NCBI GenBank assembly: GCA_030430625.1 | Contig: JAUIKL010000005.1 | Coordinates: 7,658 to 71,657, forward strand | Direction of reading: 5' to 3' | Source: Gemmatimonadota bacterium | Lineage (GTDB): Bacteria > Gemmatimonadota > Gemmatimonadetes > Longimicrobiales > Gaopeijiaceae | DNA length: 64,000 nucleotides | Part shown: positions 35,240 through 58,305 of the stretch, piece after piece | How positions within the stretch are numbered: the first letter of the stretch is position 1 | Layout: each line of letters opens with the position of its first letter | Program-made: the position numbers and the translations under genes | Notes under the pieces: generated by a model | What the model was told of the DNA's origin: nothing | What the model saw: only the letters and a program-made list of their open reading frames with translations | Databases searched by the model: none

Positions 35240-36082
35240 CTACGACTTGGTGGCTTTGCCGCGCTTGCGGCCGCGCACGATGTACTTGTTGGTGTCCTTC
35301 TTCTTCTTCCGGGTCTTCTTGCCCTCCGGCTTGCCCCAGGGGCTCACCGGGGGACGTCCACCCGAGGCGCGGCCTTCACCACCGCCGAGCGGGTGATCGA
35401 CCGGGTTCATCGCCACACCGCGGACCTTGGGACGCTTGCCCCGCCAGCGGTTGGCACCGGCCTTACCGACGACCGTCAGCTCGTGATCGGAGTTTCCGAC
35501 CTCACCGATCGTCGCCATGCACTCCTTCCGAACCCGGCGCATCTCCGTCGAGGGCAGGCGCAGGGTGACGAAGTCGCCCTCCTTCGCCATGACCTGGACA
35601 CCCGCTCCGGCCGAGCGCGCCATCTGGGCGCCCTTCTTCGGCTTGAGCTCCACGCAGTGGACGATCGTACCGAGGGGGATCAGCTCGAGCGGCAGTGCGC
35701 TTCCCAGCCGGACGTCGGCGTTCGGGCCGGACGAGATTGAGTCGCCGACCTGCAGCCCCTTCGGGTGGATGATGTAGCGCTTCTCACCGTCCGCGTAGTG
35801 GATCAGGGCGATGTTCGCCGACCGGTTCGGGTCGTACTCGATGTGAGCGACCGTGCCGGGCACGTCGAACTTGTTGCGCTTGAAGTCGATCTTCCGATAG
35901 CGGCGCTTGTGACCACCGCCCCGGCGGCGCGTCGTGATCCGCCCGTGGTGGTTACGACCACCGGAGCTGCTCAGCGACTCCGTCAGCGACTTCTCGGGTC
36001 CCTTCCGCGTGATCACCTCGTTGTCGAGGATCGAACGCGTCCGCTGACCCGGGGTCATCGGCCTGAATTTCTTGATACCCAT
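35240..36082 (-). CDS. rplB: 50S ribosomal protein L2
   Basis: [37 protein letters not shown]. Confidence 0.95.
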
Positions 36083-36390
36083 CAGCCGGCCTCGTAGAGC
36101 TCGATATGTTCGCCTTCGGCGAGCTGGACCACGGCCTTCTTGAAGGCGGGGCGGCGACCCTTCTGATGGTTCCGCGCCATCCGACCCATGAAGGCGCGCT
36201 TGGCCTTACCGGCGTAGCGCATGGTCCTCACGTCGGTCACGGTCACATCCCACAGCTTCTCGACCGCGTGACCGATCTCGATCTTGTTGCAGTTCTCCGC
36301 GACCAGGAAGGTGTACATAGAACCCTCCATCTGCTCGGTCGTCTTCTCCGTGATCACCGGAGTGAGAATCACGTCCCAGGGCTCACGCAT
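36082..36390 (-). CDS. rplW: 50S ribosomal protein L23
   Basis: ATG at 36390 gives [20 protein letters not shown]. The upstream part of the tracked ORF overlaps rplD. Confidence 0.9.
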
Positions 36391-37039
36391 GGTCGGCCTC
36401 CTCGGTCTTGTCGTCGCTCGACGAAGCCTGTGCGTCGAGGGCACCCTTCTCGATCACGACCGTGTGGGCCCACAGCACGTCGTAGACCGACTCGTCCCCG
36501 AACGGCATGACCTGAACCTGCTTCAGGTTCCGAGCCGAGCGATGCAGAGCGCCGTTCAAGCCGTTCGTGAGGATCAGCGTCTTACCCTCCAGCTCGAGCG
36601 CCCCGAGGAAGCCTACGACCTCCTTGGTCTTCGGCGTCTCGAGCACCGGCAGGTCCGCGATCACTACGCGGTCGTGCTCGGCGCGATCGTTCAGCGCGGA
36701 GCGACGAGCGAGCGAGCGGACCTTCTTGGGTACACGCTTCCGCCACGAGTGCGGGATCGGCGGGAAGGCCACACCACCGCCCTCCCACTGCACTGCGCGA
36801 ATCGTGCCCTGACGGGCGCGGCCGGTGCCTTTCTGGCGCCACGGCTTCCGACTTCCGCCCCGAACCTCGGAACGAGTCTTCGCTGCCGCCGTGCCCTGGC
36901 GTTGGTTGGAGAGATACGCCTTCACCACCTGGTGCATGGCGCTCTCGTTCACGACGCCATCGAAGACGGACTCGGGCAACGCCCGGGCCTTCCCCTTCTT
37001 GCCGTCGGCTTTGTAATAGGGTGCCTTGAACATCGTCAC
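36383..37039 (-). CDS. rplD: 50S ribosomal protein L4
   Basis: GGSRKPWRQKGTGRARQGTIRAVQWEGGGVAF. Confidence 0.95.
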   Translation of the reverse strand: MTMFKAPYYKADGKKGKARALPESVFDGVVNESAMHQVVKAYLSNQRQGTAAAKTRSEVRGGSRKPWRQKGTGRARQGTIRAVQWEGGGVAFPPIPHSWRKRVPKKVRSLARRSALNDRAEHDRVVIADLPVLETPKTKEVVGFLGALELEGKTLILTNGLNGALHRSARNLKQVQVMPFGDESVYDVLWAHTVVIEKGALDAQASSSDDKTEEADHA

Positions 37040-37650
37040 TTCGAGATCAGGACGTAACCGTCGCGGGCGCCCGGAACACCGCCCTTCACGAAGAGCAGGT
37101 TGCGCTCACCATCGACGCGCACGACCTGCAAGTTCCGGATGGTCTTGCGATCCCCACCCATACGCCCGGGCAACCGCTTGCCCTTGATGACGCGGGAGGG
37201 GTCCGTACCCGGGCCCAGCGAGCCCGGGTTACGGGACATCGGGTGACCGTGGGTCGAAGGACGTCCGCCGAAGCCGTGACGTTTCACGACTCCCTGGAAG
37301 CCCTTCCCCTTCGAGCGCCCGGTGACCTTGATTCGGTCGCCGGCCTCGAACTGGGCCACGGTCAACTCCTGACCCACTTCGTAATCCTCACCGTTGGTGG
37401 GGAACTCACGAAGCAGGCGCGGCGCGGCCTCGAGGCCCGCCTTCGCGGCGTGCCCGGCCTCTCCGGCCGACGTCCGCTTTGCCTTCTTGGCGCCGTACCC
37501 GAGCTGAACGGCCTGGTAGCCATCCGCATCGGCACTGCGCACGCTCACGACCGGGCACGGACCTGCTTCAATGACGGTCACGGGGACTTGAACCCCTTCC
37601 TCATTGAAGATCCGGGTCATGCCGATCTTCTTTCCGATCAATCCAGCCAT
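37036..37650 (-). CDS. rplC: 50S ribosomal protein L3
   Basis: MAGLIGKKIGMTRIFNEEGVQVPVTVIEAGPC, GKGFQGVVKRHGF. Confidence 0.95.
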   Translation of the reverse strand: MAGLIGKKIGMTRIFNEEGVQVPVTVIEAGPCPVVSVRSADADGYQAVQLGYGAKKAKRTSAGEAGHAAKAGLEAAPRLLREFPTNGEDYEVGQELTVAQFEAGDRIKVTGRSKGKGFQGVVKRHGFGGRPSTHGHPMSRNPGSLGPGTDPSRVIKGKRLPGRMGGDRKTIRNLQVVRVDGERNLLFVKGGVPGARDGYVLISK

Positions 37651-37667
37651 CTTCCGGAAGTCCTCCG

Positions 37668-37976
37668 TCAGTCGACTTTGATCTCGACGTCGACACCAGC
37701 GGGAAGATCCAGCTTGGTCAACGCGTCGATCGTCTGGGGGCGGCTGTCCACGATATCGATGAGCCGTTTGTGAGTTCGCAGCTCGAACTGCTCACGGCTC
37801 TTCTTGTCGATGTGTGGAGAGCGAAGGACCGTCCACCGCTGGCGACGTGTCGGAAGCGGGATCGGTCCACGGACCGACGCACCCGTCTTCTGAGCCGTAC
37901 GCACGATGTCGGCGGCCGTCTGATCGACCACCCAGTGGTCGAACGCCTTGAGTCGAATTCTGATTCTGTCAGACAT
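37668..37976 (-). CDS. rpsJ: 30S ribosomal protein S10
   Basis: [39 protein letters not shown]. Confidence 0.95.
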
Positions 37977-38347
37977 TGCTTATCCGTTACGGTTCGCGGG
38001 CAGTCGGACCGAGGGTGGCTCGCTCTCGCGAACGCCGCTCGGCGCCGATCACGAGCCTTCCTCTTCCTTCATTCCGCTTCCTCGCTACGGCCGCTACGCG
38101 CGGCCGAGCGTTCCTTCGAGCGAGCCACCCTCGGTCCGAAATCCCGACCGTAGCGGCACGCTTTCCAACTTTTCCTACCAGGTCCTACAACCTCTTCTGT
38201 TTCTGTTGGCCGCGCGAAGCGCCGGCCAGTGCCGGCGATCCACGACCGTGGTGGTGGGGCCCGGTGGCGGGGCCTCTCGAAGCGCGTCTCAGGCCGACTG
38301 CCGTCAACGCGCGGAGAGAGGCCCCGTCATCGGGACCCGCCGGCCTA
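37977..38347 (-). repeat. shared tuf 3' flank / rpsJ leader (copy 1 of the duplicated non-coding segment)
   Basis: The whole tuf-to-rpsJ spacer aligns with 61815..62182 (tuf-to-rpmG spacer). It is near-identical from about 38158 to tuf (single difference at 38186 vs 62021) and diverged but alignable from 37977 to about 38157. Confidence 0.9.
38006..38137 (-). promoter_or_regulatory. long conserved hairpin in the rpsJ leader (candidate structured RNA element), copy 1
   Basis: GGACCGAGGGTGGCTCGCTC (38006-38025) is the perfect reverse complement of GAGCGAGCCACCCTCGGTCC (38118-38137). On the transcribed strand the apical loop reads GAAGCGGAATGAAGGAAGAGGAAGG. Confidence 0.6.
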
Positions 38348-39538
<1,191 letters not shown>

Positions 39539-39575
39539 CGCTCTGGTCCTCTCGTCAGTCGCTGAGGGGTGGGTA

Positions 39576-41675
<2,100 letters not shown>

Positions 41676-41719
41676 CTATCTGGTCTCGTCGGTTCTTCGT
41701 CTGCGGCCCGTAGGCCATG

Positions 41720-41778
41720 AAAAAGGGAGCGTGGTCCTGTTGCGCTGTCGTCCTTCGGACGCAGCTGTCCGCGCTCCC
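41720..41778 (-). terminator. terminator-like hairpin plus T5 tract between rpsG and fusA (candidate attenuator)
   Basis: Minus strand reads GGGAGCG...(inner stem GCTGCGTCC GAA GGACGACAGC)...CGCTCCC followed by TTTTTC, 44 nt upstream of the fusA ATG. Confidence 0.55.
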
Positions 41779-41894
41779 TCGATTCGGAGAGGGCCCGTCG
41801 GCTTATCCGGGGGCCATCGCGTCTCTGTTATCCGCGGCCCCCATGCTTCGGAGGCTTCGGGTCCTTCCAGCGTTCTTTCTCGGCTACCTCGCCG

Positions 41895-42365
41895 TTACCA
41901 GCGGTAGTGGGCGAACGCCTTGTTCGCCTCTGCCATCCGGTGCGTGTCGTCCTTCTTCTTGATCGTGCTGCCCTCACCGCGGCTGGCCGCGAGGAGCTCG
42001 CCGGCCAGGCGCTCGGCCATGCTCTTCTCCGAGCGACCGCGAGCGAAGCTGATCAGCCAGCGCGTCGCGAGCGCCGTGCGGCGGTCGGGGCGCACCTCGA
42101 TCGGAACCTGATACGTGGCACCACCAACGCGACGGCTCTTCACCTCGAGCGCGGGCTTCGCGTTGTTGAGCGCCTGCTCGAAGACCTGCACGCCGGGCTG
42201 ACCGGAGCGCTGCTCCATGATGTCGACGGCGTCGTAGAAGATCTTCTCGGCGATCGACTTCTTCCCGTCCACCATCAGGTTGTTGATGAACTTGGTGACG
42301 GTACGGGATTCGAACTTCGGATCGGGCGGGGTAACCCGCCGCTCTGCGCGACTACGACGACTCAT
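41895..42365 (-). CDS. rpsG: 30S ribosomal protein S7
   Basis: [37 protein letters not shown]...AFAHYRW. Confidence 0.95.
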
Positions 42366-42373
42366 CTCTTCCC

Positions 42374-42745
42374 CTACTTCGGCCGCTTGGCGCCGTATTT
42401 GGAACGCCCCTGGCGCCGGGCTTCGACGCCGGACGCATCGAGCGTGCCCCGAATGATGTGGTAGCGGACGCCGGGAAGGTCCTTCACACGACCGCCTCGG
42501 ATGAGAACGATCGAGTGCTCCTGCAGGTTGTGACCTTCACCACCGATGTACGCGGTGACCTCGAAGCCATTCGTCAGGCGTACACGGGCGACCTTCCGAA
42601 GGGCCGAGTTCGGCTTCTTCGGCGTCGTCGTGTACACACGCGTGCAAACCCCGCGCTTTTGCGGGTTCCGCTGAAGAGCAGGTGCCTTGTTCTTCTTCAC
42701 CTGCGCCTTGCGGCCCTTCCGGACGAGCTGGCTGATTGTGGGCAT
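42374..42745 (-). CDS. rpsL: 30S ribosomal protein S12
   Basis: [25 protein letters not shown]...[19 protein letters not shown]. Confidence 0.97.
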
Positions 42746-42770
42746 GCGACCTCGGTCGTGCTACTTCTCG

Positions 42771-42799
42771 AAAAGAAAACGCGCCCGAACCGGGGCGCG
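42771..42799 (-). terminator. terminator-like hairpin in the rpsL 5' region
   Basis: Minus strand reads CGCGCCC-CGGTTC-GGGCGCG followed by TTTTCTTTT, ending 25 nt upstream of the rpsL ATG. It is either the udk terminator or a leader attenuator. Confidence 0.55.
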
Positions 42800-42851
42800 C
42801 CGTGTCGACGCCCGCAAGAACTTCGTGAGCGCCTGTCCGACAGAGCACGAA

Positions 42852-42880
42852 AAGGTAGAGGCCCCTGAGGGGGGTGTCAA
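42852..42880 (-). promoter_or_regulatory. candidate sigma70-type promoter for the str operon
   Basis: Minus strand has TTGACA (42880-42875), a 17-nt spacer, then TACCTT (42857-42852). The -35 is perfect and the -10 is weak. Lies about 105 nt upstream of rpsL. Confidence 0.35.
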
Positions 42881-42909
42881 CCGGATAACGGGCCTATTGC
42901 CGGGGCTTT

Positions 42910-43554
42910 TCACCCAGCGTCGATCAGGGAGTGAACCCGTTGCGCCAATCGGTCGATCGCCTCGTGGTTTCGGGCCCCTCCTTCGATCACCACATCCGCC
43001 CATACCCGGCTGGGCTCGACGTACTCGCGGTGCATCGGTTCGACGCGGGCGACATGCTGCGCCTCGACCTGCGCGGGGTCTCGGCCGCGCTCCGCGCCGT
43101 CCCTTTCGATCCGCCGGGCGAGGCGTTGTTCGGCCGTGGTCGCGACGAAGACCCGCAGGGTCGCGAGCTCTCGCACACGCGGCTCGGCCAGAACGAAGAG
43201 GCCCTCCGCCAGGATGACGGGTGCGGGCTCGACCGAGAGGCGACTCGCGCCTCGCGTCTGTGTGACGAAGTCGTACCGGGGCCTATGAATGGTCTCACCC
43301 CGGAGCAGCGCCTCGAGGTGCCGAACGAACAGGTCGGTCTCGAGGCTGCCCGGCTCGTCGACGTTGACACGGGTCCGCTCGGCGGGAGCCAGGTGCGACA
43401 GATCGCGATAGTACGCGTCGTGTGGGAGGGACGTGCACGAGACCGGCTCCAGGGCCGCCCGGAGGCACGCCACGACGGAGGACTTCCCCGACGCACTCCC
43501 ACCCGCGACGGCCAGGAGGATGCGCTGACGAGCGGGTGAGGTGGGTCGGCCCAT
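42910..43554 (-). CDS. udk: uridine kinase
   Basis: P-loop LLAVAGGSASGKSSV, HDAYYRD, RYDF, VILAEGLF, RRIERDGAERGR, PMHREYVEPS. These match the Udk pattern along the whole length. Confidence 0.85.
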   Translation of the reverse strand: MGRPTSPARQRILLAVAGGSASGKSSVVACLRAALEPVSCTSLPHDAYYRDLSHLAPAERTRVNVDEPGSLETDLFVRHLEALLRGETIHRPRYDFVTQTRGASRLSVEPAPVILAEGLFVLAEPRVRELATLRVFVATTAEQRLARRIERDGAERGRDPAQVEAQHVARVEPMHREYVEPSRVWADVVIEGGARNHEAIDRLAQRVHSLIDAG

Positions 43555-43623
43555 CCGATCCAGTGAGTAGGTGTCGAGCGGCGACGGTGCCCGTTCGCGT
43601 GAAGACTTCTCCTGGCGTGGAGA

Positions 43624-44640
43624 CTACTTGAGGGTCGGGTCGCGACACAACGTCGGGAGCGGGCGCTCCCGGTCCGCCATCCTTTCCAGGTATCCGACGG
43701 TCGTCACGCGCAGGATCTCTCCGCGGTCGAAGCTTTCGATCAGGTGGATTTCCGTCGGCTCATAGCTGTCCAGTTCGGCCATCCCTCCGAACGCCTGCCG
43801 CCCGTCGATGCACAGCTCGACCTCCTTCAACTCCCCGCCCACCCGGCGGCAGCCGGTCAGACCCTCTTCGATCGGACACGGCTCCATGTAGATGCCGAGC
43901 CGTGCCAGCAGAGCCCGGGTGTCGACCCAGGGCCGACTCGCGACGAGCCTCCGGTCGAGGGTTTGCACCGGCATCGTAGCGACCGCACGCCGCTCCCATT
44001 CCGCCTTCGCCTCGATCGCTTCGATCCTGGCGAGCGCAACGGAGTCGGGTTCTAGGGCGATATCGAGATCGGTGGGCGTCGGGATCCTCAAGTAGCGAAC
44101 CTGGGGGACGTACCCCAGATGCCGGAACTCCATCAGGACCGGCCCCACCCGGACGTCGGGGACGGAGAACCGACCTCCGGACCGGCTCAGCGCCGGTCGC
44201 GCGCGCCGTGCCGACATGTCGCGAACCTCCGCCCCCACGAGCGGTACGCCGTCCTCCGCGTCCACGACCCGACCGACGACCGTCACTTCGTTCGACACGC
44301 TCACATCGAGACCCTCCAGCAGCACCGGTCGGGCCACGAGACCGAGGCGGAGGGGTCTGGGGGCATCGGCCGGGTCGACCGTCACCGCGAGGGTCGCGTA
44401 TCCGAGCGCCTCGACCCGCACCTCGACGAAGCCGTCCGGGAGGCCACGAAGGAAGAACGTCCCATCCGCCGCGCTCAGCGTCGCGGCTCCGGCCACGTCC
44501 ACCCGAACGATGGCTCCCGGCAAGGGCTCCGAGGAGACGGCGTCGACCACCACCCCCCGAAGATCCGTCTGGGCCGAGACCGGCGAGCACACGCCGATGA
44601 CGAGAACCAACCCGACCAGGTTCAGCCACCAACCGCGAAT
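43624..44640 (-). CDS. secreted protein with two carboxypeptidase-regulatory-like (CarboxypepD_reg) beta-sandwich repeats
   Basis: ORF 43624..44610 (TTG) is extended here to an in-frame ATT at 44640. Repeats LRGVVVDAVSSEPLPGAIVRV and VVGRVVDAEDGVPLVGAEVRD. The C-terminal half is unassigned. The start codon is uncertain (44610 or 44640). Confidence 0.6.
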   Translation of the reverse strand: MRGWWLNLVGLVLVIGVCSPVSAQTDLRGVVVDAVSSEPLPGAIVRVDVAGAATLSAADGTFFLRGLPDGFVEVRVEALGYATLAVTVDPADAPRPLRLGLVARPVLLEGLDVSVSNEVTVVGRVVDAEDGVPLVGAEVRDMSARRARPALSRSGGRFSVPDVRVGPVLMEFRHLGYVPQVRYLRIPTPTDLDIALEPDSVALARIEAIEAKAEWERRAVATMPVQTLDRRLVASRPWVDTRALLARLGIYMEPCPIEEGLTGCRRVGGELKEVELCIDGRQAFGGMAELDSYEPTEIHLIESFDRGEILRVTTVGYLERMADRERPLPTLCRDPTLK

Positions 44641-44767
44641 GGGTCACCTCCCTCCATGTCCCGCCACCCCGCCGGTCGATCGACCGGTGCACACGGGAGC
44701 GCACCCAGAGTAGCGGACACACTGCGGTCCCGACACCGCCCCTGTTCTGCCGTGAAGCGGCGAGCAG

Positions 44768-44833
44768 TGTCGGCTCAGGCGGTGTGCGGTGTCGGCTCAG
44801 GCGGTGTGCGGTGTCGGCTCAGGCCGTGTGCGG
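44768..44833. repeat. 3 x 22-bp direct tandem repeat
   Basis: GTGTCGGCTCAGGCGGTGTGCG at 44768-44789 and 44790-44811 (identical), and GTGTCGGCTCAGGCCGTGTGCG at 44812-44833 (1 mismatch). Starts 5 nt downstream of the TonB-receptor stop. Confidence 0.95.
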
Positions 44834-44838
44834 CCGCG

Positions 44839-46896
44839 TCAGAAGGGTAAGGTGTCGAAGGTCATCCGGACCCGGAGGGAGCGAGGGGCTCCCGGGGTCA
44901 CGTATGACGTCGACCGCAACTCGACGTACCGGATGTCGAGCGCGTTTCCGAGCTCGAGATCGATCGTACGCCCATCGGCGATGGTCCAGGACACCCCCGC
45001 GTCCAGGACCGAATACGCCCGCGTCCGGACCGACGGCTCCCCGATCGGGACGTGGGGCCCCGACCAACGCCACGAGAGCCGAGCTTCGACGTCGTCCGTG
45101 GCCTGGGCCAGGAGTCGCACCCGCCCGTGATGGTCGGCCAAACCGGGGACCCGGCGTGCGTCCTCGTCGGTCGACACCTCCACCGGGGTCGAACCCGCGA
45201 AGACCTCGTTGGGGTGGTCTTCATGAGCGTCCGCGTAGGGCGCGCTCAGGCGGGCGTGGTTCCAGGTGCCGCCGACCTCGACGGCGAGGCGCTCCGTGAC
45301 CGTCACGGCCAACCGTCCCTCCAGACCCTGCCGTGTGCTCTCACCCGCCCCGGAGCTGGCCAGTGTGATCGCGTCGAAGACGCGCTCGTTGTCCACGTCG
45401 ACCCGGAACGCCGACAGAGACGCCTCCCAGTCGTCACCCTCACGCTCGATCGCCAGCTCGTTCGACCAGGAGATGTACGGCTCCCGCGTCGGGTCCCCGA
45501 TGATCCCCACCGCGCTCCTGAACCCGCGTGCAGTGGTCGCCACCGCGTACCAGGACCTCGCGAGCTCGAAGCGTGCACCGAGCTTGGGGGAGACGATGGT
45601 GTTCGTCGACGAGATCCATGTCGGTTCGTCTGACAGCGTGGAGCGACTCCGGTGCCGCACGACGTCCGCGCGAAGCCCGACGTCGACCCCGAGTCGGTCA
45701 CCGGCGGTCAGTCTCCAGCGGCCGTACGCCGCGCCCGCACGATGCTGCGAGTCGAGCTCGATTTCCGGGTCGACGACCTCGCGGAGCAGCGTCAGGGCGT
45801 GTTCGTAGCGGACGTCGTCAGCCCGTCCGGACACACCGAGAAGGACGTCGCCGCGACTCGTCGTCCACCCGAGCTCGACCTGCCCCCCTCCCCCGACCCT
45901 CTCGTCCCATTCGCCCGACTGCTGGAGGAGACCGGCCCCTCCATGGTCGTGCCCGGGAATGTGGAGAAAGAATGAGTAGTCCGAGTGCATCCCCCACCCC
46001 ACTGCCTGCAGATACCCACCCGCTACGCCGGGCTGAGCGTACCGTGCGTGACCCACCACCCGCCGGGACCGCCCTCCGTCGGTGGGGTCAGTCGGAGTCT
46101 GGAAGAGCTCGGCGTTGAAGTCGGTGACGGAGACGAAGCCGGGCGAGTCCCAGCCGGATCCGTAGACCCCGACGCCGCCCTCGAGTCTACCCCGGCCGAG
46201 GGAGCGCCATCCCCGGACGAGCCCGTTCGCCAACCAGGCGTCCGATCCTTCACGCCAGCCCTCGTCCCGCGCGCCCTGAGCCCCCACGAAGAAACCCCCG
46301 TCGTCGAAGCGGCGGCCCGTGGACACGTCGCCCCGAAGGTCCCGGAAGCTCGACGCCGAGAAGGAGCCGCGTGCACCTTCGGCATCGGCCCGTGTGAAGA
46401 CTTCGACGGTCCCCGCGAGCGCGAAGTCCCCGTACAGGGGGCTCGCATTCCCCTCGATCACCCGCATCGACGCCACGGACGACGACATCAAGACGTTCCA
46501 ATCCGCGTACCCTTCGACGTGCCCGTGCGCCGGCAAATTCACCGGCACCCCGTCGATCACGAGGAGGACGTCCGACGAGTGGTCCGACGTGAAACCCCGC
46601 ATGACGACGTTCGAGGCGTAGCCCGGGCCCTGGCCCTGAGCGTGGACTTCGACCCCGGCGACGTCGCGAAGCAGCTGATACGCATCCGCCGACTGGGCAC
46701 GCCGCAGATCGACCGGACTGACCGTGAGCGCGCCGACCGGCGGAGGCGCCGAGCGCTCGCGCTCGACCGCGACCTCGATCGGCTCGAGGATGTACCGGAC
46801 GGTGTCCACCGCGATCGAATCGGGGTCCTGCGCTCCGAGTCCGGGTGACAGGCAGCCGCAGGCCGCAACCAGGCCGCATAGAATCCGCGTCTTCAT
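44839..46896 (-). CDS. TonB-dependent outer-membrane receptor
   Basis: Part of ORF 44839..47235. ATG at 46896 forms an ATGA overlap with the upstream stop. Signal MKTRILCGLVAACGCLSPGLGAQ. Plug motifs LLRDVAGVEV...NVVMRGF...VLLVIDGVPVN. C-terminal ...RVRMTFDTLPF (terminal Phe). Confidence 0.88.
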   Translation of the reverse strand: MKTRILCGLVAACGCLSPGLGAQDPDSIAVDTVRYILEPIEVAVERERSAPPPVGALTVSPVDLRRAQSADAYQLLRDVAGVEVHAQGQGPGYASNVVMRGFTSDHSSDVLLVIDGVPVNLPAHGHVEGYADWNVLMSSSVASMRVIEGNASPLYGDFALAGTVEVFTRADAEGARGSFSASSFRDLRGDVSTGRRFDDGGFFVGAQGARDEGWREGSDAWLANGLVRGWRSLGRGRLEGGVGVYGSGWDSPGFVSVTDFNAELFQTPTDPTDGGRSRRVVGHARYAQPGVAGGYLQAVGWGMHSDYSFFLHIPGHDHGGAGLLQQSGEWDERVGGGGQVELGWTTSRGDVLLGVSGRADDVRYEHALTLLREVVDPEIELDSQHRAGAAYGRWRLTAGDRLGVDVGLRADVVRHRSRSTLSDEPTWISSTNTIVSPKLGARFELARSWYAVATTARGFRSAVGIIGDPTREPYISWSNELAIEREGDDWEASLSAFRVDVDNERVFDAITLASSGAGESTRQGLEGRLAVTVTERLAVEVGGTWNHARLSAPYADAHEDHPNEVFAGSTPVEVSTDEDARRVPGLADHHGRVRLLAQATDDVEARLSWRWSGPHVPIGEPSVRTRAYSVLDAGVSWTIADGRTIDLELGNALDIRYVELRSTSYVTPGAPRSLRVRMTFDTLPF

Positions 46897-48083
46897 GATG
46901 GGGGCCACGGGTTCGCGAAGCGCGGCTCGGTGATGAACGTCGAGTCCGTCAGCGCATGGAGGTAGTCGATCAAGCCCTCGCGCTCTTCGGGCGTCAGCGT
47001 GAACCCACTCACGAAGCTGCTCTTGAACGGGTTCTCGCTTCCGACGCCCGCGTTCGGACCGAACGAGATCGTGCGTCCGCCTGCGGCATAGTGATCGATG
47101 ACCTCGTCGAGGGTCGCGATGCTCCCGTCGTGCATGTAGGGTGCCGTCAGCGCGATGTTGCGCAGTGTCGGGGCCTTGAAACGGCCCATGTCTTCGGGTC
47201 GAAGGGTGAACTCGCTCAGACCCACGTTCGGCCACGGGTATCCGCCCTCACCGTCGACGTTGTAGAGCCCCGTGTTGTGGAACTCGACCTCGGGCGAACT
47301 CTTACCCTCGAAGTCGAAGGTCCCGGTGAACATCAGCCCACCGTGGCAGTGGAAGCACTCGAGTCGCTCGGAGAAATAGAGCGCCTGTCCGAGCCGCGCC
47401 GACGCAGACAAAGCGTCCGCGTCTCCCCGTCGGAAGCGATCCACCGGGGCATCGCCCGAGATCAGTGTCCGCTGGAAGGCGGCCAGGGCTCGAGTGACCG
47501 TCGCAATCGAATAGGGGTCGACCTCGGCGGGATACGCGGCGGGAAAGAGCGTCTGATAGGTGGCATCCGCTCGCAGCCTCGCGAGGAGTTCGTCCTCCAT
47601 GCCGCTCATGCCCAGCTCGACCGGGTCCTCCCCGAAGAGTGGGCCGAGGGCCTGGTGGGAGAGTGTCGTCTCGTTCGGATTCGCCCAGTTGAGTGCCGGC
47701 TGATATCCCGGGTTCGTCAGACTCATGCTGCTGCGCGGATGGTTCTGCCCCGTCGAGCCGAGTCCGACCTCGCGCCCGTCCGTGAACGCCAACGCCTGCT
47801 GGTGACACGAGGCGCACGACTGTGTCTCGTTGGCCGACAGCCGGGTGTCGTAGAAGAGGTGTCGGCCGAGTTCGACACGCTCGGCCGTCATCGCTTCCCC
47901 TTCGGGCACCCGGGGAGGCGGGAACCCCTCGGGCAGATTCCAGTCGAAGTCCGTCGGCTCGACGAGCGTCACCCCGGGGCCGAGGACTTCGTCACCTCCG
48001 CACGCCGAAAGGGCCGTGAGGACCGCGGCCAGTGCCGCGGCCCCCACACGTCTGCGCCCCGCCGATTCGCTACAGAACCACAT
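46893..48083 (-). CDS. mbnH: di-heme cytochrome c peroxidase family lipoprotein (MauG/MbnH-like)
   Basis: Two CxxCH haem motifs (CASCHQQ and CFHCHGG). Lipobox LTALSAC. About 396 aa, as in CCP/MauG enzymes. Lies immediately downstream of an MbnP-like gene. Confidence 0.75.
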   Translation of the reverse strand: MWFCSESAGRRRVGAAALAAVLTALSACGGDEVLGPGVTLVEPTDFDWNLPEGFPPPRVPEGEAMTAERVELGRHLFYDTRLSANETQSCASCHQQALAFTDGREVGLGSTGQNHPRSSMSLTNPGYQPALNWANPNETTLSHQALGPLFGEDPVELGMSGMEDELLARLRADATYQTLFPAAYPAEVDPYSIATVTRALAAFQRTLISGDAPVDRFRRGDADALSASARLGQALYFSERLECFHCHGGLMFTGTFDFEGKSSPEVEFHNTGLYNVDGEGGYPWPNVGLSEFTLRPEDMGRFKAPTLRNIALTAPYMHDGSIATLDEVIDHYAAGGRTISFGPNAGVGSENPFKSSFVSGFTLTPEEREGLIDYLHALTDSTFITEPRFANPWPPS

Positions 48084-48094
48084 GACGGATTCGA

Positions 48095-48952
48095 CTAGCG
48101 GACCGCGATCCAGCTCTGACCGGTCGAGGTCGCACCCTCGTAGTCCAGCCCGAAGCGGTTCATGACCGCCGCACAGTCGGCATCGCCCGGGAAGGACATG
48201 CAGCCCGAGGCTCCACCGCCCTGCTGTGACACGTCACTCCCTTCGAGGAGGAGGGCGAGGTCAGCGCCGACCTCGTCTGTCTCCCAGTCGAACGATGTGA
48301 GCACGATCTCGGGTCGGTGCGCATTGGCGCACGAAGTCGCGGGTACGGTCGGGTCGCCGCTCGGCGAACATCCCGTCGAGCCCAGGTGGACGTTCCAACC
48401 GTTCGGCTGGTCGGCCGAGGTGTGGTCGATCCGCGCGAACTTGTAGCCGGCGTTCCAGTTCCAGAAGAGACCGGTGATGTCCTGGGGAGCCGCAGCCGTG
48501 GTGTGGTCGATGTGGTTCATGTCGGCAGGAACGCCGAGCACGAACCGCACACCGGTGTAGTCGCCGGCTTCGACCGTGCCGCGGAGCGAGGTGTTCATTC
48601 CGGCGGTCCCGTTCACGCAGGGGCCACTTCCGTTCTCGAAGTCGAGGAGCGCGAGACCGTCCCGCTGCCACACGCCGTCGTCCTCGAGCTCGACTGCGAC
48701 CATGTCGCCACCCGAGGTCGTCAGGTACACGTCGTGCACGTAGAAACGGAAGTCGATCGGGGTGATCTCGGTCGAGGCCGTCCCGATGCCGGCGTACGAC
48801 TGGCCGCACGCGAAATCGGATCCGTCGACGAGGGCCGCGAAGGCGATCGTCACGTCGATGGGGCCGTCCGGCTCCATCATGTCGTCGTCACAAGCGGCAA
48901 CAGCGGCCACGGCGAGGCCGAGGGTCATCGTCTTCTTGAGCATATGCAGCAT
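48095..48952 (-). CDS. mbnP: MbnP-like (WxW-motif, Cys-containing) putative copper-binding lipoprotein
   Basis: Lipobox LAVAAVAAC. FWNWNAGYKFARIDH contains the WxW signature I associate with the MbnP / 'metallo-mystery pair' partner family. Seven Cys. Obligate-looking pairing with the di-heme enzyme 12 nt downstream. Confidence 0.6.
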   Translation of the reverse strand: MLHMLKKTMTLGLAVAAVAACDDDMMEPDGPIDVTIAFAALVDGSDFACGQSYAGIGTASTEITPIDFRFYVHDVYLTTSGGDMVAVELEDDGVWQRDGLALLDFENGSGPCVNGTAGMNTSLRGTVEAGDYTGVRFVLGVPADMNHIDHTTAAAPQDITGLFWNWNAGYKFARIDHTSADQPNGWNVHLGSTGCSPSGDPTVPATSCANAHRPEIVLTSFDWETDEVGADLALLLEGSDVSQQGGGASGCMSFPGDADCAAVMNRFGLDYEGATSTGQSWIAVR

Positions 48953-49111
48953 GGTGTCCTACCCACTGAGAAAGGGTGATCGGTCGTCGGGTGACGCGCG
49001 CCATCCGTGCGATGGGCGGTCAGGCACTACCTCGGAAGCGAGGAGTTCCATACGACGAGATCAGCCGCACACCCACGTCGGGTACGGCTCGGCCTTCGGT
49101 CCGCGGAACTC

Positions 49112-49513
49112 CTAGAGGAGGGCGGGAGGGCCGTTCGGGTAGGGAAGGACGTACGCAGGGGTGGCGATCACCACCTCGACCGCGGGAACGACATCGGCCA
49201 CCGCGTCGGTCGAGGCCGACGCGACCGTAGCAGTCGTCGGGACGAGGAGGAACTCCTGTCCCGCCGGCTGACAACAGAAGCCGCACAGGCCGCAGTCGTC
49301 TTCTTCCTGCGAATCGGACGGGCCGTGCTCGGCATGCGCGGGACGCGCCATCTCGTGGCCCGCCATCTCATGGCCGGCCATCATCCCGTGGCCACTTCCG
49401 GCCGTCTCGTGCCCGAGACAACAGGCGTGCACGAGCGAAGAGGCCGCATGCACCATGACCAGGAGGGTCAGGACCGCGGCGCCGAACCGGTAGGAACGAG
49501 ACAACGTACTCAT
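49112..49513 (-). CDS. small secreted His/Met/Cys-rich protein (putative metal-binding)
   Basis: 133 aa. N-terminal hydrophobic signal/anchor FGAAVLTLLVMVHAASSLVHA. GHGMMAGHEMAGHEMARPAHAEH tract, acidic SDSQEEDD, Cys cluster CGLCGFCC, Pro-rich end. G/C-rich third positions support coding. Confidence 0.6.
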   Translation of the reverse strand: MSTLSRSYRFGAAVLTLLVMVHAASSLVHACCLGHETAGSGHGMMAGHEMAGHEMARPAHAEHGPSDSQEEDDCGLCGFCCQPAGQEFLLVPTTATVASASTDAVADVVPAVEVVIATPAYVLPYPNGPPALL

Positions 49514-49575
49514 ACTTCTGAAACGTAACGCGGCTCGGGCCGAGCGGGAGCCTTCAGCGGGCGAATGCCGCGCGA

Positions 49576-49600
49576 GGCCGCCTCTTCGGCGGAGGCGGCC
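49576..49600 (-). other. GC-rich hairpin (9-bp stem) between rpoC and the small metal-protein gene
   Basis: GGCCGCCTC-TTCGGCG-GAGGCGGCC. No T tract on either strand. Confidence 0.5.
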
Positions 49601-49624
49601 CGGCTACCCCAAACGGGAGCCAGC

Positions 49625-49657
49625 GTAGGCCCGAGGAGCGGCGCCCCTCGGGCCTAC
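49625..49657 (-). terminator. rpoC-proximal terminator-like hairpin
   Basis: Perfect 12-bp stem GTAGGCCCGAGG / CCTCGGGCCTAC with a 9-nt loop, beginning 5 nt after the rpoC stop. The downstream T tract is weak (GTTT), so termination efficiency is unknown. Confidence 0.55.
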
Positions 49658-49661
49658 ACCA

Positions 49662-53969
<4,308 letters not shown>

Positions 53970-54057
53970 GTGTATTAAGCCTCTTTGGCACAGATAGCAG
54001 ACTGGGGTACTTCACCTTCGAAAGCGTTCGACTCGGACGCGGCCGAGATCGACGCCC

Positions 54058-57000
54058 TCACTCTTCCTCTCCGAGTGTCACACTCAGCCCGAGCGCCTGT
54101 AGCTCCTTGACCAGGACGTTGAAGGACTCGGGGATACCCGGCTTGGGCAGGTTGTCGCCCTTCACGATGGCCTCGTAGACCTTCGAGCGACCCTGCACGT
54201 CGTCGGACTTGACCGTCAGGATCTCCTGCAGCGTGTGCGCGGCACCATACGCCTCGAGTGCCCACACCTCCATCTCACCGAAGCGCTGGCCACCGAACTG
54301 CGCCTTACCGGCCAGCGGCTGCTGCGTGACGAGAGAGTACGGTCCGATGGACCGGGCGTGGATCTTGTCATCCACGAGGTGGCTGAGCTTCAGCATGTAG
54401 ATCGCGCCGACCGTGACGGGGAAGTCGAACCTCCGCCCGCTGCGGCCGTCCCGGAGCCAGATCTTTCCGTTCGGGAAGATCTCGGCGTGCTCGAGCAGCT
54501 CGATCACGGCGTCGTCCAGTCCGGACTTCACCGACGAACGCCCCTTGAGCTTCTGAATCGCGGGGAAGAGGTCCGAGACCTTCTCACCGTTGCGATCCGC
54601 CAGCTCCTCGGCCGCCTCCAGCAGGAACTCGACCGTCTTGTCGAAGAACTTCGACTGCTGCTTCGAGAGCTTGATCCCGAGGTAGGCGTCGAGCGACTGC
54701 CCGATGCCGTGGCTGTGGCCCACATGGTCCTCGCCATCGCCGTTGGTGTCGTCGTCGGCGCCGGCCATAACGACCGGGAGCTGCGCGGCGATGTCGACCA
54801 TCGTGGAGATGTCGTCGAGCTCGGTCGGGGACTGAGCCTTCAGGTTCAACGCCTGATCGACCCACTTGAGGCCGGCCAGCTTGAGCAGCGCGCCGACCTC
54901 GTTCTCGGTGGCCCCCTGGAAGACCGGGGTCTTCGCCTCGAAGCCGAGCACGCGCCCGGCCCACCCGAGGTGGGTCTCGAGGATCTGACCGACGTTCATG
55001 CGGGACGGCACACCGAGCGGGTTGAGCACGATCTCGACCGGGGTTCCGTCGGGGAGGAACGGCATCTCCTCCTCCGGCACGATCCGGGCAATGATGCCCT
55101 TGTTTCCGTGCCGCCCGGCCATCTTGTCACCGACCGAAATCTTGCGCTTCTCGGCGACGTAGACCTTCACGAGCTGGACGACGCCCGGGGGCAGCTCGTC
55201 CGGCTGGAAGACCTTGTCGATCTGCTCTTCCGTCTTGTCCTTGACCCGCTGAACGCGGGTGGCCGCCTCGTCGATCACACGACGGAGTCGCTCACTCGCT
55301 TCACCGTTCTGGACCTTGAAGGTGGCCAGATCGACGCGCCGGAAGTTGATGTCGTCGATCAACTCCTTCGTGAGCTTGGTGCCCTCGTCGAGGACCGGCT
55401 CTACGGTGCCCTTCTTGAGCATCAGGGCGATGGTCTGACGCTGGAGTACGGTGCGAAGCTCGTCGTCCCGCGCATCGTTGATGCGCTGGATCTCCTCGCG
55501 TTCCATCTGGCGGAGGTCACCGATCTTGGCGCCGTGTTCCTTCTCCAGAAGCGGGTCGTCGATCCGGCGACTGAAGATCTTCACGTCGATGATCGTGCCC
55601 GTCATTCCCGGGGGCACGCGGAGCGACGAGTCCTTCACGTCCTTCGCCTTCTCTCCGAAGATCGCGGTGAGGAGCTTCTCCTCCGGAGACAGCTCGGTCT
55701 CACCCTTCGGGGTGATCTTTCCGACGAGGATGTCGCCCGCCTTCACCCGGGCGCCGACGCGCACGATGCCGCGCTCGTCGAGGTCGACGAGGCTCTCCTC
55801 GGCGACGTTCGGGATCTCCCGGGTGATCTCCTCCATGCCCCGCTTCGTGTCGCGGACGTGGAGTTCGAGTTCCTGAATGTGGATCGAGGTGAAGACGTCG
55901 TCCTTCACCAGCTTCTCGCTGATGACGATGGCGTCCTCGAAGTTCGATCCGTACCAGGGCATGAAGGCCACCAGCACGTTGCGGCCCAGCGCGAGCTCAC
56001 CCGCGTCGGTGCTCGGTCCGTCGGCGATGATGTCACCGGGGTGGACTTCCTCACCGATCGAAACCAGCGGGCGCTGGTTGATGGCCGTGTCCTGGTTGGT
56101 CCGCCAGTACTTGCGGAGCCGGTACCGATCGAACTGTGCCAGCTTCGCCAGGGGCTGATCCGGGCGACCGGCGATCGAACCGGTATCGACCACGATTTCG
56201 TCAGCCGTCACCTGAACCACCCGCCCACCGCGACGCGCCGTGATGACGGCACCGGAGTCGGAAGCGACCTTCGCCTCCAGCCCCGTTCCTACGAGAGGCG
56301 CGTCCGTGTACAGGAGCGGAACGGCCTGCCGCTGCATGTTCGAGCCCATGAGGGCCCGGTTCGCATCGTCGTGCTCGAGGAAGGGGATCAGGGCCGCCGC
56401 CACCGAGACCAGCTGGTCCGGCGCAACATCCATGTAGTCGATGTCGTCCGGCTGGAGGAGCGGGAAGTCACCGCGCTCGCGGCAGAGGACGAACTCGTTC
56501 TTGAAATTGCCCTTCTCGTCGAGGGGGGCGTTGGCCTGGGCGATCCGGGCCTCCTCCTCCTCGTTGGCCGACAGCCACTCGATCTCGGCCGTGACCTTCC
56601 CGTTTTTCACCTTCCGGTACGGCGTCTCGACGAAGCCGAGATCGTTGATCCGCGAGTACGTCGTCAGAGACGTGATGAGGCCGATGTTCGGCCCCTCGGG
56701 CGTCTCGATCGGGCACATCCGGCCGTAGTGGGAATAGTGGACGTCTCGGACCTCGAAGCCCGCACGCTCCCGCGTGAGACCACCCGGACCCAGCGCGGAG
56801 AGACGACGCTTGTGCGTCATCTCGGCCAGCGGGTTCGTCTGGTCCATGAACTGGGACAGCTGACTGGAGCCGAAAAACGCCTGGATGACCGCGGACACCG
56901 TACGAGCGTTCACCAGGTCGTCGATGTTGATCTTCTCCGGATCGGTGTTGATCGACATCCGCTCCTTCACCAGGCGCGCCATCCGGCTGAGCCCGACGGA

Positions 57001-58305
57001 GAACTGGTTGGCGATCAACTCACCGACCGTGCGAACACGGCGGTTCCCGAGGTGGTCGATGTCGTCCGTGTACCCGCGACCCTCATTGAGCTCGATGAGG
57101 TGACCGATGATCGAGACGAAGTCCTCCTGAGTGAGGACCGTCTGGCTGCGAGGCACGTCGACGCCGAGCCGCTGGTTGATCTTGTAGCGGCCCACACGCC
57201 CGAGGTCGTACCGCTTCGGGTTGAAGAAGACCCGCTCGAGCGCTTCGCGGGCCGTCTCGATGTTCGGCGCCTCACCGGGGCGGAGAAGCGAGTAGATCGC
57301 GCTGAGCGCCTCGCCCTCGTTCTCGGTGGGGTCCTTCTTGATCGTGTTCTTGATCATCGGGCTCTCGCCGCGAGACGTCTCACGATCGCTCTTGTAGATC
57401 TTGATCTTCTTGACGCCGAGGCGCTCGAGGATCTCCATCACCTCGTCCTCGATCTCCTCGCCGTTGTCGATCAGGACCTCACCGGTCTCCGGATCGACGA
57501 ACTCCTCGGCGATGACCTTCCCTTCGATCTCCAGCTTCTTCTCGTCGTCCATCTTCCCGAGCTTGACCTCGGTGACGTCGTAGTAGAGCTGGAAGATCTC
57601 CGCGTCCGAGCTGTACCCGAGTGCGCGGAGGAGGGCCGTGGCCGGGAACTTCTTCTTCTTGTCGATGTGCACGTAGCACACATCGTTGATGTCCAGGGTG
57701 AACTCGACCCATGAGCCGCGGAACGGAATGATCCGCGACGAGAAGAGCTTGGTGCCGTTGGGGTGCACGCTCTCCTCGAACACCACACCGGGCGACCGGT
57801 GCAGCTGGCTCACCACGACGCGCTCGGCCCCGTTGATGATGAAGGTGCCGAGTTCGGTGAGGAGGGGCAGGTCACCGAGATAGACTTCCTTCTCGATGAT
57901 GTCCTGCGTCACCCGCTCCTCGATGGGCGTCGACTTCTTCTTCTTTTTCTTCTTCTTCTTGGCCTCCTCCTCATCTTCCTCGGGCTGTTCCCAGATGATG
58001 AGGCGAAGGGTCGCCTTGAGAGGCGCGGCGTACGTCATGTCACGCTCGATGCACTCCTCCACGGAGTACTTCGGCTCGCCGAGCGTCGCGGAGACGTATT
58101 CGAGCATGAAGTGCTCGTTCACGTCCTCGATCGGGAAGATCTCACCGAAGACGCGGTCGAGACCGAAATCCCACTGCTCCTGAAGGTCCGGCTCGACGAG
58201 CTTCTCGAACGACCGAAGCTGGACGTCGAGCAAGTTCGGCATCGGCATGACCGACTTGAGTTTGGCGAAGCTCAGAATCGGACGGTTGTCTTTGCGGAGT
58301 TCCAA
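54058..58305 (-). CDS. rpoB: DNA-directed RNA polymerase beta subunit
   Basis: [52 protein letters not shown] (rifampicin region), [15 protein letters not shown] start preceded by GAGGGGGA. 1415 aa. Confidence 0.97.

Follow-up and report, generated by a model that had tools for sequence, protein, structure and literature searches.

A DUF2946-family open reading frame is a probable copper-responsive regulatory leader of an mbnP-mbnH-TonB receptor operon in Gemmatimonadota

The minus strand of a 64,000-nt stretch of a Gemmatimonadota contig (JAUIKL010000005.1; the whole stretch is called the window below) carries, at 49112..49513, a 133-aa open reading frame (ORF) that stands ahead of the genes for MbnP, MbnH and a TonB-dependent receptor. 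This ORF, termed here the leader, is probably a copper-responsive upstream regulatory ORF of the DUF2946 (CruR/CutF) type serving the mbnP-mbnH-TonB-receptor copper-acquisition operon. The interpretation is carried by a substitution pattern that marks the leader as a gene, its family, a gene order kept in relatives, the spacing of its Cys and Pro motifs, two conserved nucleotide islands, a patch richer in C than in G, and the matched complementarity between the leader tail and the Shine-Dalgarno (SD) region of mbnP. The initial annotation, made from the sequence alone, had described a small secreted His/Met/Cys-rich protein heading an MbnP/MbnH/receptor string, with a suggested likeness to DUF2946 proteins. 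All the parts that it listed are present in the translation (MSTLSRSYRFGAAVLTLLVMVHAASSLVHACCLGHETAGSGHGMMAGHEMAGHEMARPAHAEHGPSDSQEEDDCGLCGFCCQPAGQEFLLVPTTATVASASTDAVADVVPAVEVVIATPAYVLPYPNGPPALL), and the link to copper that it drew is well founded in view of the DUF2946 match and the MbnP/MbnH/receptor synteny.

The DUF2946 family has been characterised since 2022 in the form of CruR from Bordetella and CutF from Rhodobacter, both of which are exported nascent-chain copper sensors (PMC9426467; 10.1101/2022.11.11.516240). CruR (Bp2923) is an upstream ORF of B. pertussis whose nascent chain senses copper via a CxxC motif; copper relieves its arrest at a C-terminal RAPP and thereby triggers Rho-dependent termination ahead of bfrG, which encodes a TonB-dependent transporter, and the Rho-utilisation (rut) site has been coarsely mapped to a C>G bubble within cruR (PMC9426467). 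The same work showed that the spacing of 45 between CxxC and the C-terminal motif is functionally important, that more than 95% of the family has an export signal or an N-in/C-out transmembrane segment, and that MbnPH-like genes are among those found behind cruR homologues (PMC9426467), so the association of such leaders with MbnPH is already in the literature. CutF of Rhodobacter capsulatus is exported co-translationally and binds copper, which leads to a stall at its C-terminal GPPP; the stall melts a stem-loop that conceals cutO's ribosome-binding site (10.1101/2022.11.11.516240; 10.1101/2025.02.05.636593).

The surroundings of the leader (~67% G+C) are crowded with 88 ORFs of at least 50 aa within 14 kb, mostly a spurious background, and the leader ORF (ATG at 49513, TAG at 49114..49112) was therefore checked for being a real gene. 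Its G+C content at third codon positions is 0.81 in its own frame. In comparison with a relative from another metagenome (locus L001, 88% identical), third codon positions account for 31 of 45 nucleotide differences, and the codon changes comprise 24 synonymous and 16 non-synonymous ones. This pattern indicates purifying selection on the leader, and the third-position bias rules out a chance ORF. An exhaustive HMMER search and a profile search together yielded some 35 clusters of homologues, in whose alignment columns of His, Cys and Pro are invariant. As judged from these comparisons, the leader ORF is a real gene.

Its family was assigned by profile search. The PF11162 (DUF2946) profile matches the leader with 25.5 bits against a gathering cut-off of 23.7 (E = 2.4e-5), and the alignment of residues 13-130 covers profile positions 1-117 of 117, which turned the suggested likeness into a match over the full profile. 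The filters that Ozturk et al. used for CutF-like proteins (<150 aa, PP among the final 15 residues, a signal peptide and, on the same strand, a downstream gene at <1 kb; 10.1101/2022.11.11.516240) are also passed, with 133 aa, PP at 129-130, a signal-like N-terminus and mbnP 159 nt downstream on the same strand. Judged by profile and filters, the leader belongs to the DUF2946 (CruR/CutF) family. The Pfam and NCBIfam searches at E <= 1 otherwise gave solely weak matches to CopL (NF033807; 16.2 bits against a cut-off of 40, E = 0.013), CzcI (13.7 bits against a cut-off of 100, E = 0.073) and Na+/H+ antiporter subunit E. The CopL and CzcI matches fit the CutF-like superfamily, in whose network CopL has been placed (Ozturk et al., 10.1101/2022.11.11.516240). 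Like the leader, CopL and CzcI are small metal-related leader-like proteins ahead of copper or metal resistance genes, but the scores lie far under the curated cut-offs and the downstream genes are others.

The signal, CxxC core and Pro-rich end that had been pointed out earlier are the functional hallmarks of the DUF2946 family. Residues 1-30 (49424..49513, minus strand, as for all features of the leader and its operon) form a predicted export signal or N-in/C-out membrane anchor, as read from a positively charged n-region with two Arg and a hydrophobic core of 18-20 residues (MSTLSRSYRFGAAVLTLLVMVHAASSLVHA). In an AlphaFold2 model built on a 17-sequence alignment, a single helix of residues 4-27 comprises the sole high-confidence residues (mean pLDDT 57) and the rest of the protein is low-confidence coil; sequence and predicted helix thus agree with the export signal of the family. 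The helix is followed by VHACC (residues 28-32), in which H29-A-C31-C32 (49418..49429) represents a subfamily motif H-P/A-C-C at the predicted membrane/periplasm boundary; H29 and C31 are invariant and C32 is nearly so among 17 aligned members. Pro occupies -1 in the majority of relatives (LLHPCC) and speaks against cleavage by signal peptidase I at this place. A lipoprotein reading of VHAC was also ruled out, given the atypical His at -2 and the Pro at -1 in most relatives.

The His/Met tract GHGMMAGHEMAGHEMARPAHAEH (residues 41-63, 49325..49393) lies within a variable His-rich linker and is encoded in part by a 15-nt tandem near-repeat, found by Tandem Repeats Finder in 2.5-3 copies at 49346..49393, in agreement with the near-repeat of about 15 nt noticed before. 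The tract itself is unconserved, as relatives carry a His-rich linker of varying length with 6-18 His and 0-5 internal Met. It is followed by the acidic patch SDSQEEDD (residues 66-73, 49295..49318), with an acidic stretch at the same place in most relatives, and by CGLCGFCC (residues 74-81, 49271..49294), which includes the family CxxC as C77-x-x-C80. Within C74-G-L-C77-G-F-C80-C81, the residues C74, C80 and C81 are invariant and C77, G75 and G78 nearly invariant in the 17-member alignment. The Pro-rich C-terminus (PAYVLPYPNGPPALL) contains LPYPNGPP (residues 123-130, 49124..49147), a putative arrest core with NGPP in the place of RAPP. P124, P129 and P130 are invariant within the subfamily consensus LLP[FWY][AS]N[AG]PP, and PP ends three residues from the leader C-terminus, a placement as in CruR. 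Of 35 proteins, 32 have a distance of 44-46 residues from CC to N[AG]PP; in the leader 46 residues separate C80 from N127, or 45 when counted from C81, in line with the spacing of about 45 in the family.

The genes behind the leader are mbnP (48095..48952; an MbnP-family copper-binding protein of 285 aa, PF20243 137 bits, TIGR04052 266 bits), mbnH (46893..48083; an MbnH-family di-haem MauG-like enzyme of 396 aa, TIGR04039 457 bits, PF03150) and a TonB-dependent receptor gene (44839..46896; product starting MKTRIL, with Plug and TonB_dep_Rec_b-barrel domains), all on the same strand, so that the leader does head an MbnP/MbnH/receptor string as proposed. The leader and mbnP are separated by a structured intergenic region (IGR) of 159 nt (48953..49111), with predicted hairpins. 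The gap between mbnP and mbnH is 11 nt (48084..48094), and the receptor start and the mbnH stop share 4 nt (ATGA, 46893..46896); the three genes look translationally coupled, unlike the arrangement behind the leader with its 159-nt gap.

This gene order extends beyond the window. The leader subfamily is small (35 members), entirely metagenomic, and its named members are Gemmatimonadota metagenome-assembled genomes (MAGs). They share a layout that begins with the signal and LLH-P-C-C-L-G, continues through a variable linker rich in His to C(E)GxCGxCC and, some 45 residues on, ends with LLP[FWY][AS]N[AG]PP and 3-7 further residues. In every contig of sufficient length, namely ten independent ones (L001, L004, L005, L007, L009, L012, L013, L014, L016 and L019), leader, IGR, MbnP, MbnH and TonB receptor follow in the same order, the leader being present beside the MbnPH genes of each; CopC comes after the receptor in L004 and L007. 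The gene 5' of the leader varies by locus (rpoC, a glycosyltransferase, an RND pump and others), and the constant heading position combined with changing upstream genes indicates that the leader travels with the cassette and always heads it. After curation of starts the IGR spans 110-159 nt among mbnP-type loci, and the first position in a copper operon with a long IGR behind, typical of DUF2946/CruR, is thus found in the window and the ten contigs.

A word-indexed homology search with the single protein found one relative, and exhaustive HMMER was needed to reach the subfamily. The GTDB species genomes gave no match to the single leader protein, while a search with the trimmed alignment gave six loci there, all in Gemmatimonadota MAGs. 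One of them, L019, has the same cassette and the remaining five (L020-L024) encode a sister family, LHTCVMHGG...CSCLGDC...LLPFSNGPPxASSRA. In L020, L021, L023 and L024 a CarboxypepD_reg-TonB receptor gene (confirmed with Pfam in L021 and L023) comes about 100 nt downstream of the sister leader, as in the CruR-BfrG arrangement. These sister leaders (L020:3001-3534, L021:2950-3495, L023:2950-3512 and L024:2902-3455, from Gemmatimonadaceae MAGs) have no Pfam match, and their last codons (GCUUCCUCUCG) form an 8-11 nt perfect complement to the receptor SD region. A tblastn search of plasmids with the leader gave no match. Wherever the source gives names, the leader gene is unnamed or called only 'hypothetical protein'.

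RNA-derived sequences were available from the same habitat. In a metatranscriptome assembly, an 863-nt contig runs from mbnP through the IGR into the leader, two-thirds of which it covers, and a second contig covers the leader start plus 77 nt upstream. Both contigs fit co-transcription of leader and mbnP, possibly including read-through from rpoC, which lies upstream of the leader together with rpoB. A scan of the leader region for sigma-70 promoters gave no site, and no intrinsic terminator was found there, the one terminator-like match inside the ORF being at chance level. The post-transcriptional gate proposed below is perhaps needed partly because of rpoC read-through.

The richness in residues that can bind metal (6 Cys, 8 His and 5 internal Met per 133 aa), the conservation of H-x-C-C and C(E)GxCGxCC beyond a bare CxxC, and the constant co-occurrence with the copper protein MbnP would also suit a stable copper chaperone or buffer, exported or anchored in the membrane, that hands Cu(I)/Cu(II) to MbnP, the receptor or an inner-membrane importer. 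Such a role was conjectured by the first CutF authors (cited in PMC9426467), resembles the metallochaperone suggested for the leader in the initial annotation, and could coexist with that of a regulatory leader. We regard it as unlikely. None of the known Met/His-rich periplasmic copper families (PcoE/SilE, CusF, CopC, PCuAC, CopM) gave a profile match in Pfam or NCBIfam at E <= 1, DUF2946 being the sole family found. The model is unstructured save for the signal helix, and the His/Met tract varies in sequence and length. Nor does a chaperone account for an invariant PP core at the C-terminus with a fixed distance of 45-46 residues to the Cys cluster, for the constant first position ahead of a long IGR, or for the fact that the leader 3' end and the ribosome-binding region of mbnP are conserved as nucleotide sequences. 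Furthermore, the studied DUF2946 proteins are cis-acting regulatory upstream ORFs: mature CruR and CutF are both undetectable in vivo, and CutF acts in cis alone (PMC9426467; 10.1101/2022.11.11.516240).

The second function suggested at the outset, a precursor of a modified copper-binding peptide (methanobactin-like or bufferin-like) with a Cys-rich core matured by neighbouring enzymes, is highly improbable. The leader does have a Cys-rich core behind a leader-like N-terminus and adjoins mbnP and mbnH, both of which are found in methanobactin operons as well (PMC3621798). The cassette, its flanks and the relatives' contigs contain no gene for MbnB/MbnC (DUF692/MNIO), a radical-SAM enzyme, a cyclodehydratase or a peptidase, and the lack of a maturase gene nearby makes a precursor unlikely. 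Methanobactin precursors are short cytoplasmic peptides, unlike the leader with its Sec-type signal, and according to work from the Rosenzweig laboratory MbnH reportedly acts on MbnP itself.

The nucleotide sequences of the leader end and the IGR bring a further line of evidence for the regulatory ORF. Between the window and L001 the IGR is 98.1% and the last 45 nt of the leader 97.8% identical, compared with 88.8% for the whole leader and 92.8% for mbnP. Across pairs of loci, identity is 83-98% in the last 45-48 nt of the leader. For the final 25 nt of the IGR with the ATG it reaches 86-100% in 8 of 9 pairs, even with a diverged middle part of the IGR, and 66% in the pair that is most distant. 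The leader body shows 58-88% (58-79% in most) and the whole IGR goes down to 61-71%. The leader 3' end and the mbnP SD region are the most conserved islands. A search of Rfam at E <= 1 over 48800..49750 gave no match. According to 78-nt sliding composition, the last ~25 codons of the leader lie in a C-rich, G-poor patch (49092..49195; C 0.44-0.47, G 0.22-0.26), a candidate rut site, and in 14 of 16 loci the maximum of C-G is located at most 55 nt upstream of the leader stop.

The minimum-free-energy fold of a 231-nt segment (leader 3' end, IGR and mbnP start; z = -3.07) contains a helix that closes the IGR. In this predicted structure leader codons 120-126 (49156..49139; GCGU..GUCCU..CCUAC), a putative anti-SD segment, pair with the mbnP SD region and AUG (GUGGGUAGGACACCAUGC, 48966..48949). 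The SD sequences differ across lineages and the leader tails differ correspondingly: tail CCCUCUCC pairs with SD GGAGAGGG, CUUCCUCU(CG) with (CG)AGAGGAAG, CUCCCCCCUC with GAGGGGGAG, and CCUCGUUCGA with UCGAACGAGG. In several of these lineages the tail segment falls within the footprint of a ribosome stalled at PP. A permutation among nine lineage representatives gave a sum of -169.1 kcal/mol for each tail with its own SD versus -139.4 +/- 7.4 kcal/mol for shuffled pairs (P = 0.0002), a result that G+C shared within a locus may inflate.

On the basis of these data and of the CruR and CutF precedents, the following course of events may be envisaged for the leader as a regulatory ORF. During translation the N-terminal signal or anchor would bring the nascent chain to the membrane, and the ribosome would pause at LPYPNGPP, its P site occupied by Pro129 and its A site by Pro130. 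CGLCGFCC, 46-50 residues from the peptidyl-transferase centre, would then be at or just past the tunnel exit, while HACC and the His/Met tract, some 70-100 residues back, would be outside already and probably in the periplasm. Copper, the presumed ligand, bound at the Cys/His sites could alter the duration of the pause through a folding force, a blocked disulfide or a changed pull by the translocon. The paused ribosome would cover the C-rich rut-like patch and sit on or beside the pyrimidine segment complementary to the mbnP SD; once it was released, Rho could load and the SD helix could form, so that the fate of the ribosome would decide downstream transcription (through Rho) and translation (through SD occlusion). 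The likeliest sign is that at low copper the stall persists and the operon is ON, and that with copper the stall is relieved, the leader is finished and released, and the operon is OFF. The CruR sign is favoured because the cassette is of the uptake type, as in CruR-BfrG.

The opposite sign, as in CutF, would mean that copper induces the stall and turns the genes ON, with the MbnPH-receptor cassette serving under copper stress. The G-P-P core is indeed nearer to the EGPPP of CutF, whose stall is copper-induced and EF-P-sensitive (10.1101/2025.02.05.636593), than to RAPP, and the predicted structure hides the mbnP SD like the cutO stem-loop. The downstream genes (TonB-dependent receptor, MbnP, CopC) are nevertheless of the uptake type, and CruR, the sole studied leader before a TonB receptor, shuts it off with copper (PMC9426467). 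Moreover, the IGR in the window is 159 nt, while most CutF-like IGRs are <100 nt and melting of a stem-loop is presumed to operate only across short ones (10.1101/2022.11.11.516240). There is, in our opinion, just a slim chance that a CutF-like sign operates here.

Several observations weigh against the interpretation of the leader as a CruR-type regulator. In the presumed arrest core the Arg of RAPP is missing and is replaced by Asn in 32 and by Thr in 3 of the 35 subfamily proteins. Arg is reported to be irreplaceable for arrest in ApcA, ApdA, ApdP and SecM, and the R139A change abolishes arrest in CruR (PMC12992588); hence arrest via the RAPP mechanism is not to be assumed for cores with Asn or Thr. 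NGPP might cause a weaker, EF-P-sensitive diprolyl pause similar to that at GPPP in CutF, or it might cause no arrest. CutF stalls at EGPPPRL without Arg in an EF-P-sensitive manner (10.1101/2025.02.05.636593), which provides a precedent within the family for a proline core lacking Arg. Secondly, the margin of the PF11162 match is just 1.8 bits and most subfamily members score under the cut-off: 9 of 17 match DUF2946 at E <= 0.1, and the window protein alone exceeds the gathering score. The conserved H-P-C-C and the His-rich linker are superfluous in the CruR model, point to some further chemistry with metals and could serve a mature protein. The RNA evidence consists of low-depth assembled contigs with possible DNA carry-over. 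As for the SD helix, resampling of synonymous codons was mostly non-significant (individual p from 0.002 to 0.84), with 15 of 16 loci under the null mean although the loci are not independent; tail/SD complementarity arises mostly from the amino-acid sequence, because Pro, Leu and Ser codons naturally complement an SD. A blocked ribosome footprint lifted the mean SD accessibility slightly, from 0.41 to 0.47-0.49, and in the window the value changed from 0.38 to 0.36 with a monosome and to 0.53 with a disome. In view of the resampling, the weak footprint effect and the shared G+C, occlusion of the SD by the leader tail is kept as plausible but unproven.

The window leader resembles CruR as a small exported protein, first in a copper-uptake operon with a TonB-dependent receptor, with CxxC about 45 residues before a C-terminal x-A/G-P-P that lies three residues from the end. 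Both ORFs carry a C>G-rich patch in their 3' part and are followed by a long GC-rich IGR (162 bp in B. pertussis, 159 nt here; PMC9426467), and the predicted lack of structure in the leader parallels the reports of CruR as poorly structured and undetectable. It differs from CruR by Asn (NGPP) for the Arg of RAPP, by a Cys motif enlarged to CxxCxxCC, by the added and conserved H-P/A-C-C after the signal, and by the linker rich in His and here also in Met. CruR comes from Proteobacteria, not Gemmatimonadota; the next gene in the window is mbnP, not the receptor, and a matched anti-SD/SD complementarity is undescribed for cruR. With CutF the leader shares the DUF2946-like sequence, Sec signal, Cys motif and a C-terminal proline repeat without Arg. 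The mRNA structure predicted over the SD of the next gene would, if it forms and opens as proposed, be a further likeness to the cis-acting CutF system, in which a stalled ribosome is thought to open such a structure. CutF, however, governs a detoxifying multicopper oxidase induced by copper, whereas the genes downstream in the window are of the uptake type; its motifs are CxxxC and PPP instead of CxxCxxCC and N-G-P-P, and the IGR in the window is longer. Peptides of the ApdA/ApdP/ApcA/SecM type are likewise small secretory or membrane proteins with x-A/G-P-P near the C-terminus, encoded upstream of a presumed target, and the survey of RAPP/RGPP proteins noted TonB-related and copper-related downstream genes (PMC12992588). 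Their Arg, reportedly irreplaceable, is absent here, where Asn (Thr in 3 of 35) takes its place.

The link of cruR-type leaders with MbnPH and TonB receptors is thus already published, and what is distinctive here is the core with Asn in place of Arg, the enlarged Cys cluster, a second metal module, and leader tails matched to the SD of their own locus. It is a tentative possibility, clearly less probable than the regulatory function as such, that these features act together as an Arg-free LLP[FWY][AS]-N-[AG]-P-P core, a two-part copper sensor (H-P-C-C with His/Met in the periplasm and CxxCxxCC at the tunnel exit) and a dual gate of the MbnPH operon in which the stalled ribosome masks a rut-like C-rich patch and a co-evolving anti-SD segment.

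The assignment gives a specific and testable function to a gene otherwise unnamed or hypothetical. It would carry nascent-chain copper sensing of the CruR/CutF type into Gemmatimonadota and into MbnP/MbnH operons; outside methanotrophs, little is known about how such operons are regulated. The feature of broader interest is the invariant Asn/Thr at the position where all studied RAPP-type peptides need Arg. If N-G/A-P-P does arrest ribosomes, the rules for arrest cores broaden; if it arrests nothing, the regulatory model of the family needs revising for this clade. In annotation, small Cys/His-rich ORFs with a C-terminal PP ahead of copper genes would be better taken as regulatory leaders than as chaperones.

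Further observations concern the start of the leader and its chromosomal surroundings. Most leader ORFs considered (window 49514..49540; L005, L011, L012 and L014) have no clear SD sequence upstream, and in several of them TAnnnT-like hexamers 7-15 nt before the ATG hint at very short or absent 5' leaders; contrary to this, the RNA contig of the window reaches 77 nt 5' of the leader ATG. A GC-rich 8-bp hairpin without a U-tract (GCCGCCTC-N7-GAGGCGGC, 49578..49600) lies about 65 nt past the rpoC stop, and L001 has a hairpin of other sequence at the corresponding place after rpoC; the former may be an rpoC attenuator or terminator, or a piece of the 5' untranslated region of the leader. A strain variant (49103 and nearby) seen in an RNA-derived contig (metatranscriptome run X5) differs over 48503..49364 by ten substitutions and an insertion of 1 nt. 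The IGR contains this insertion and five of the substitutions, and one synonymous change affects leader codon 131.

The flank of the cassette opposite to rpoC comprises a gene for a CarboxypepD_reg-domain protein beyond the receptor, a kinase-like gene and ribosomal genes. The junction of rpoB-rpoC with rpsG-fusA-tuf-S10 is usually contiguous in bacteria. In the window (35240..58305, minus strand) a block of ~6.7 kb, made up of the leader, mbnP, mbnH, the TonB receptor gene, the gene for the CarboxypepD_reg protein and the PRK/uridine-kinase-like gene, splits rpoB-rpoC from the rpsG-fusA-tuf-S10 ribosomal block. The rpoB product (54058..58305) has a lineage-specific insertion near its N-terminus, with an acidic run followed by a poly-Lys run. 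The DNA of the window itself is present in biofloc and aquaculture metagenomes.

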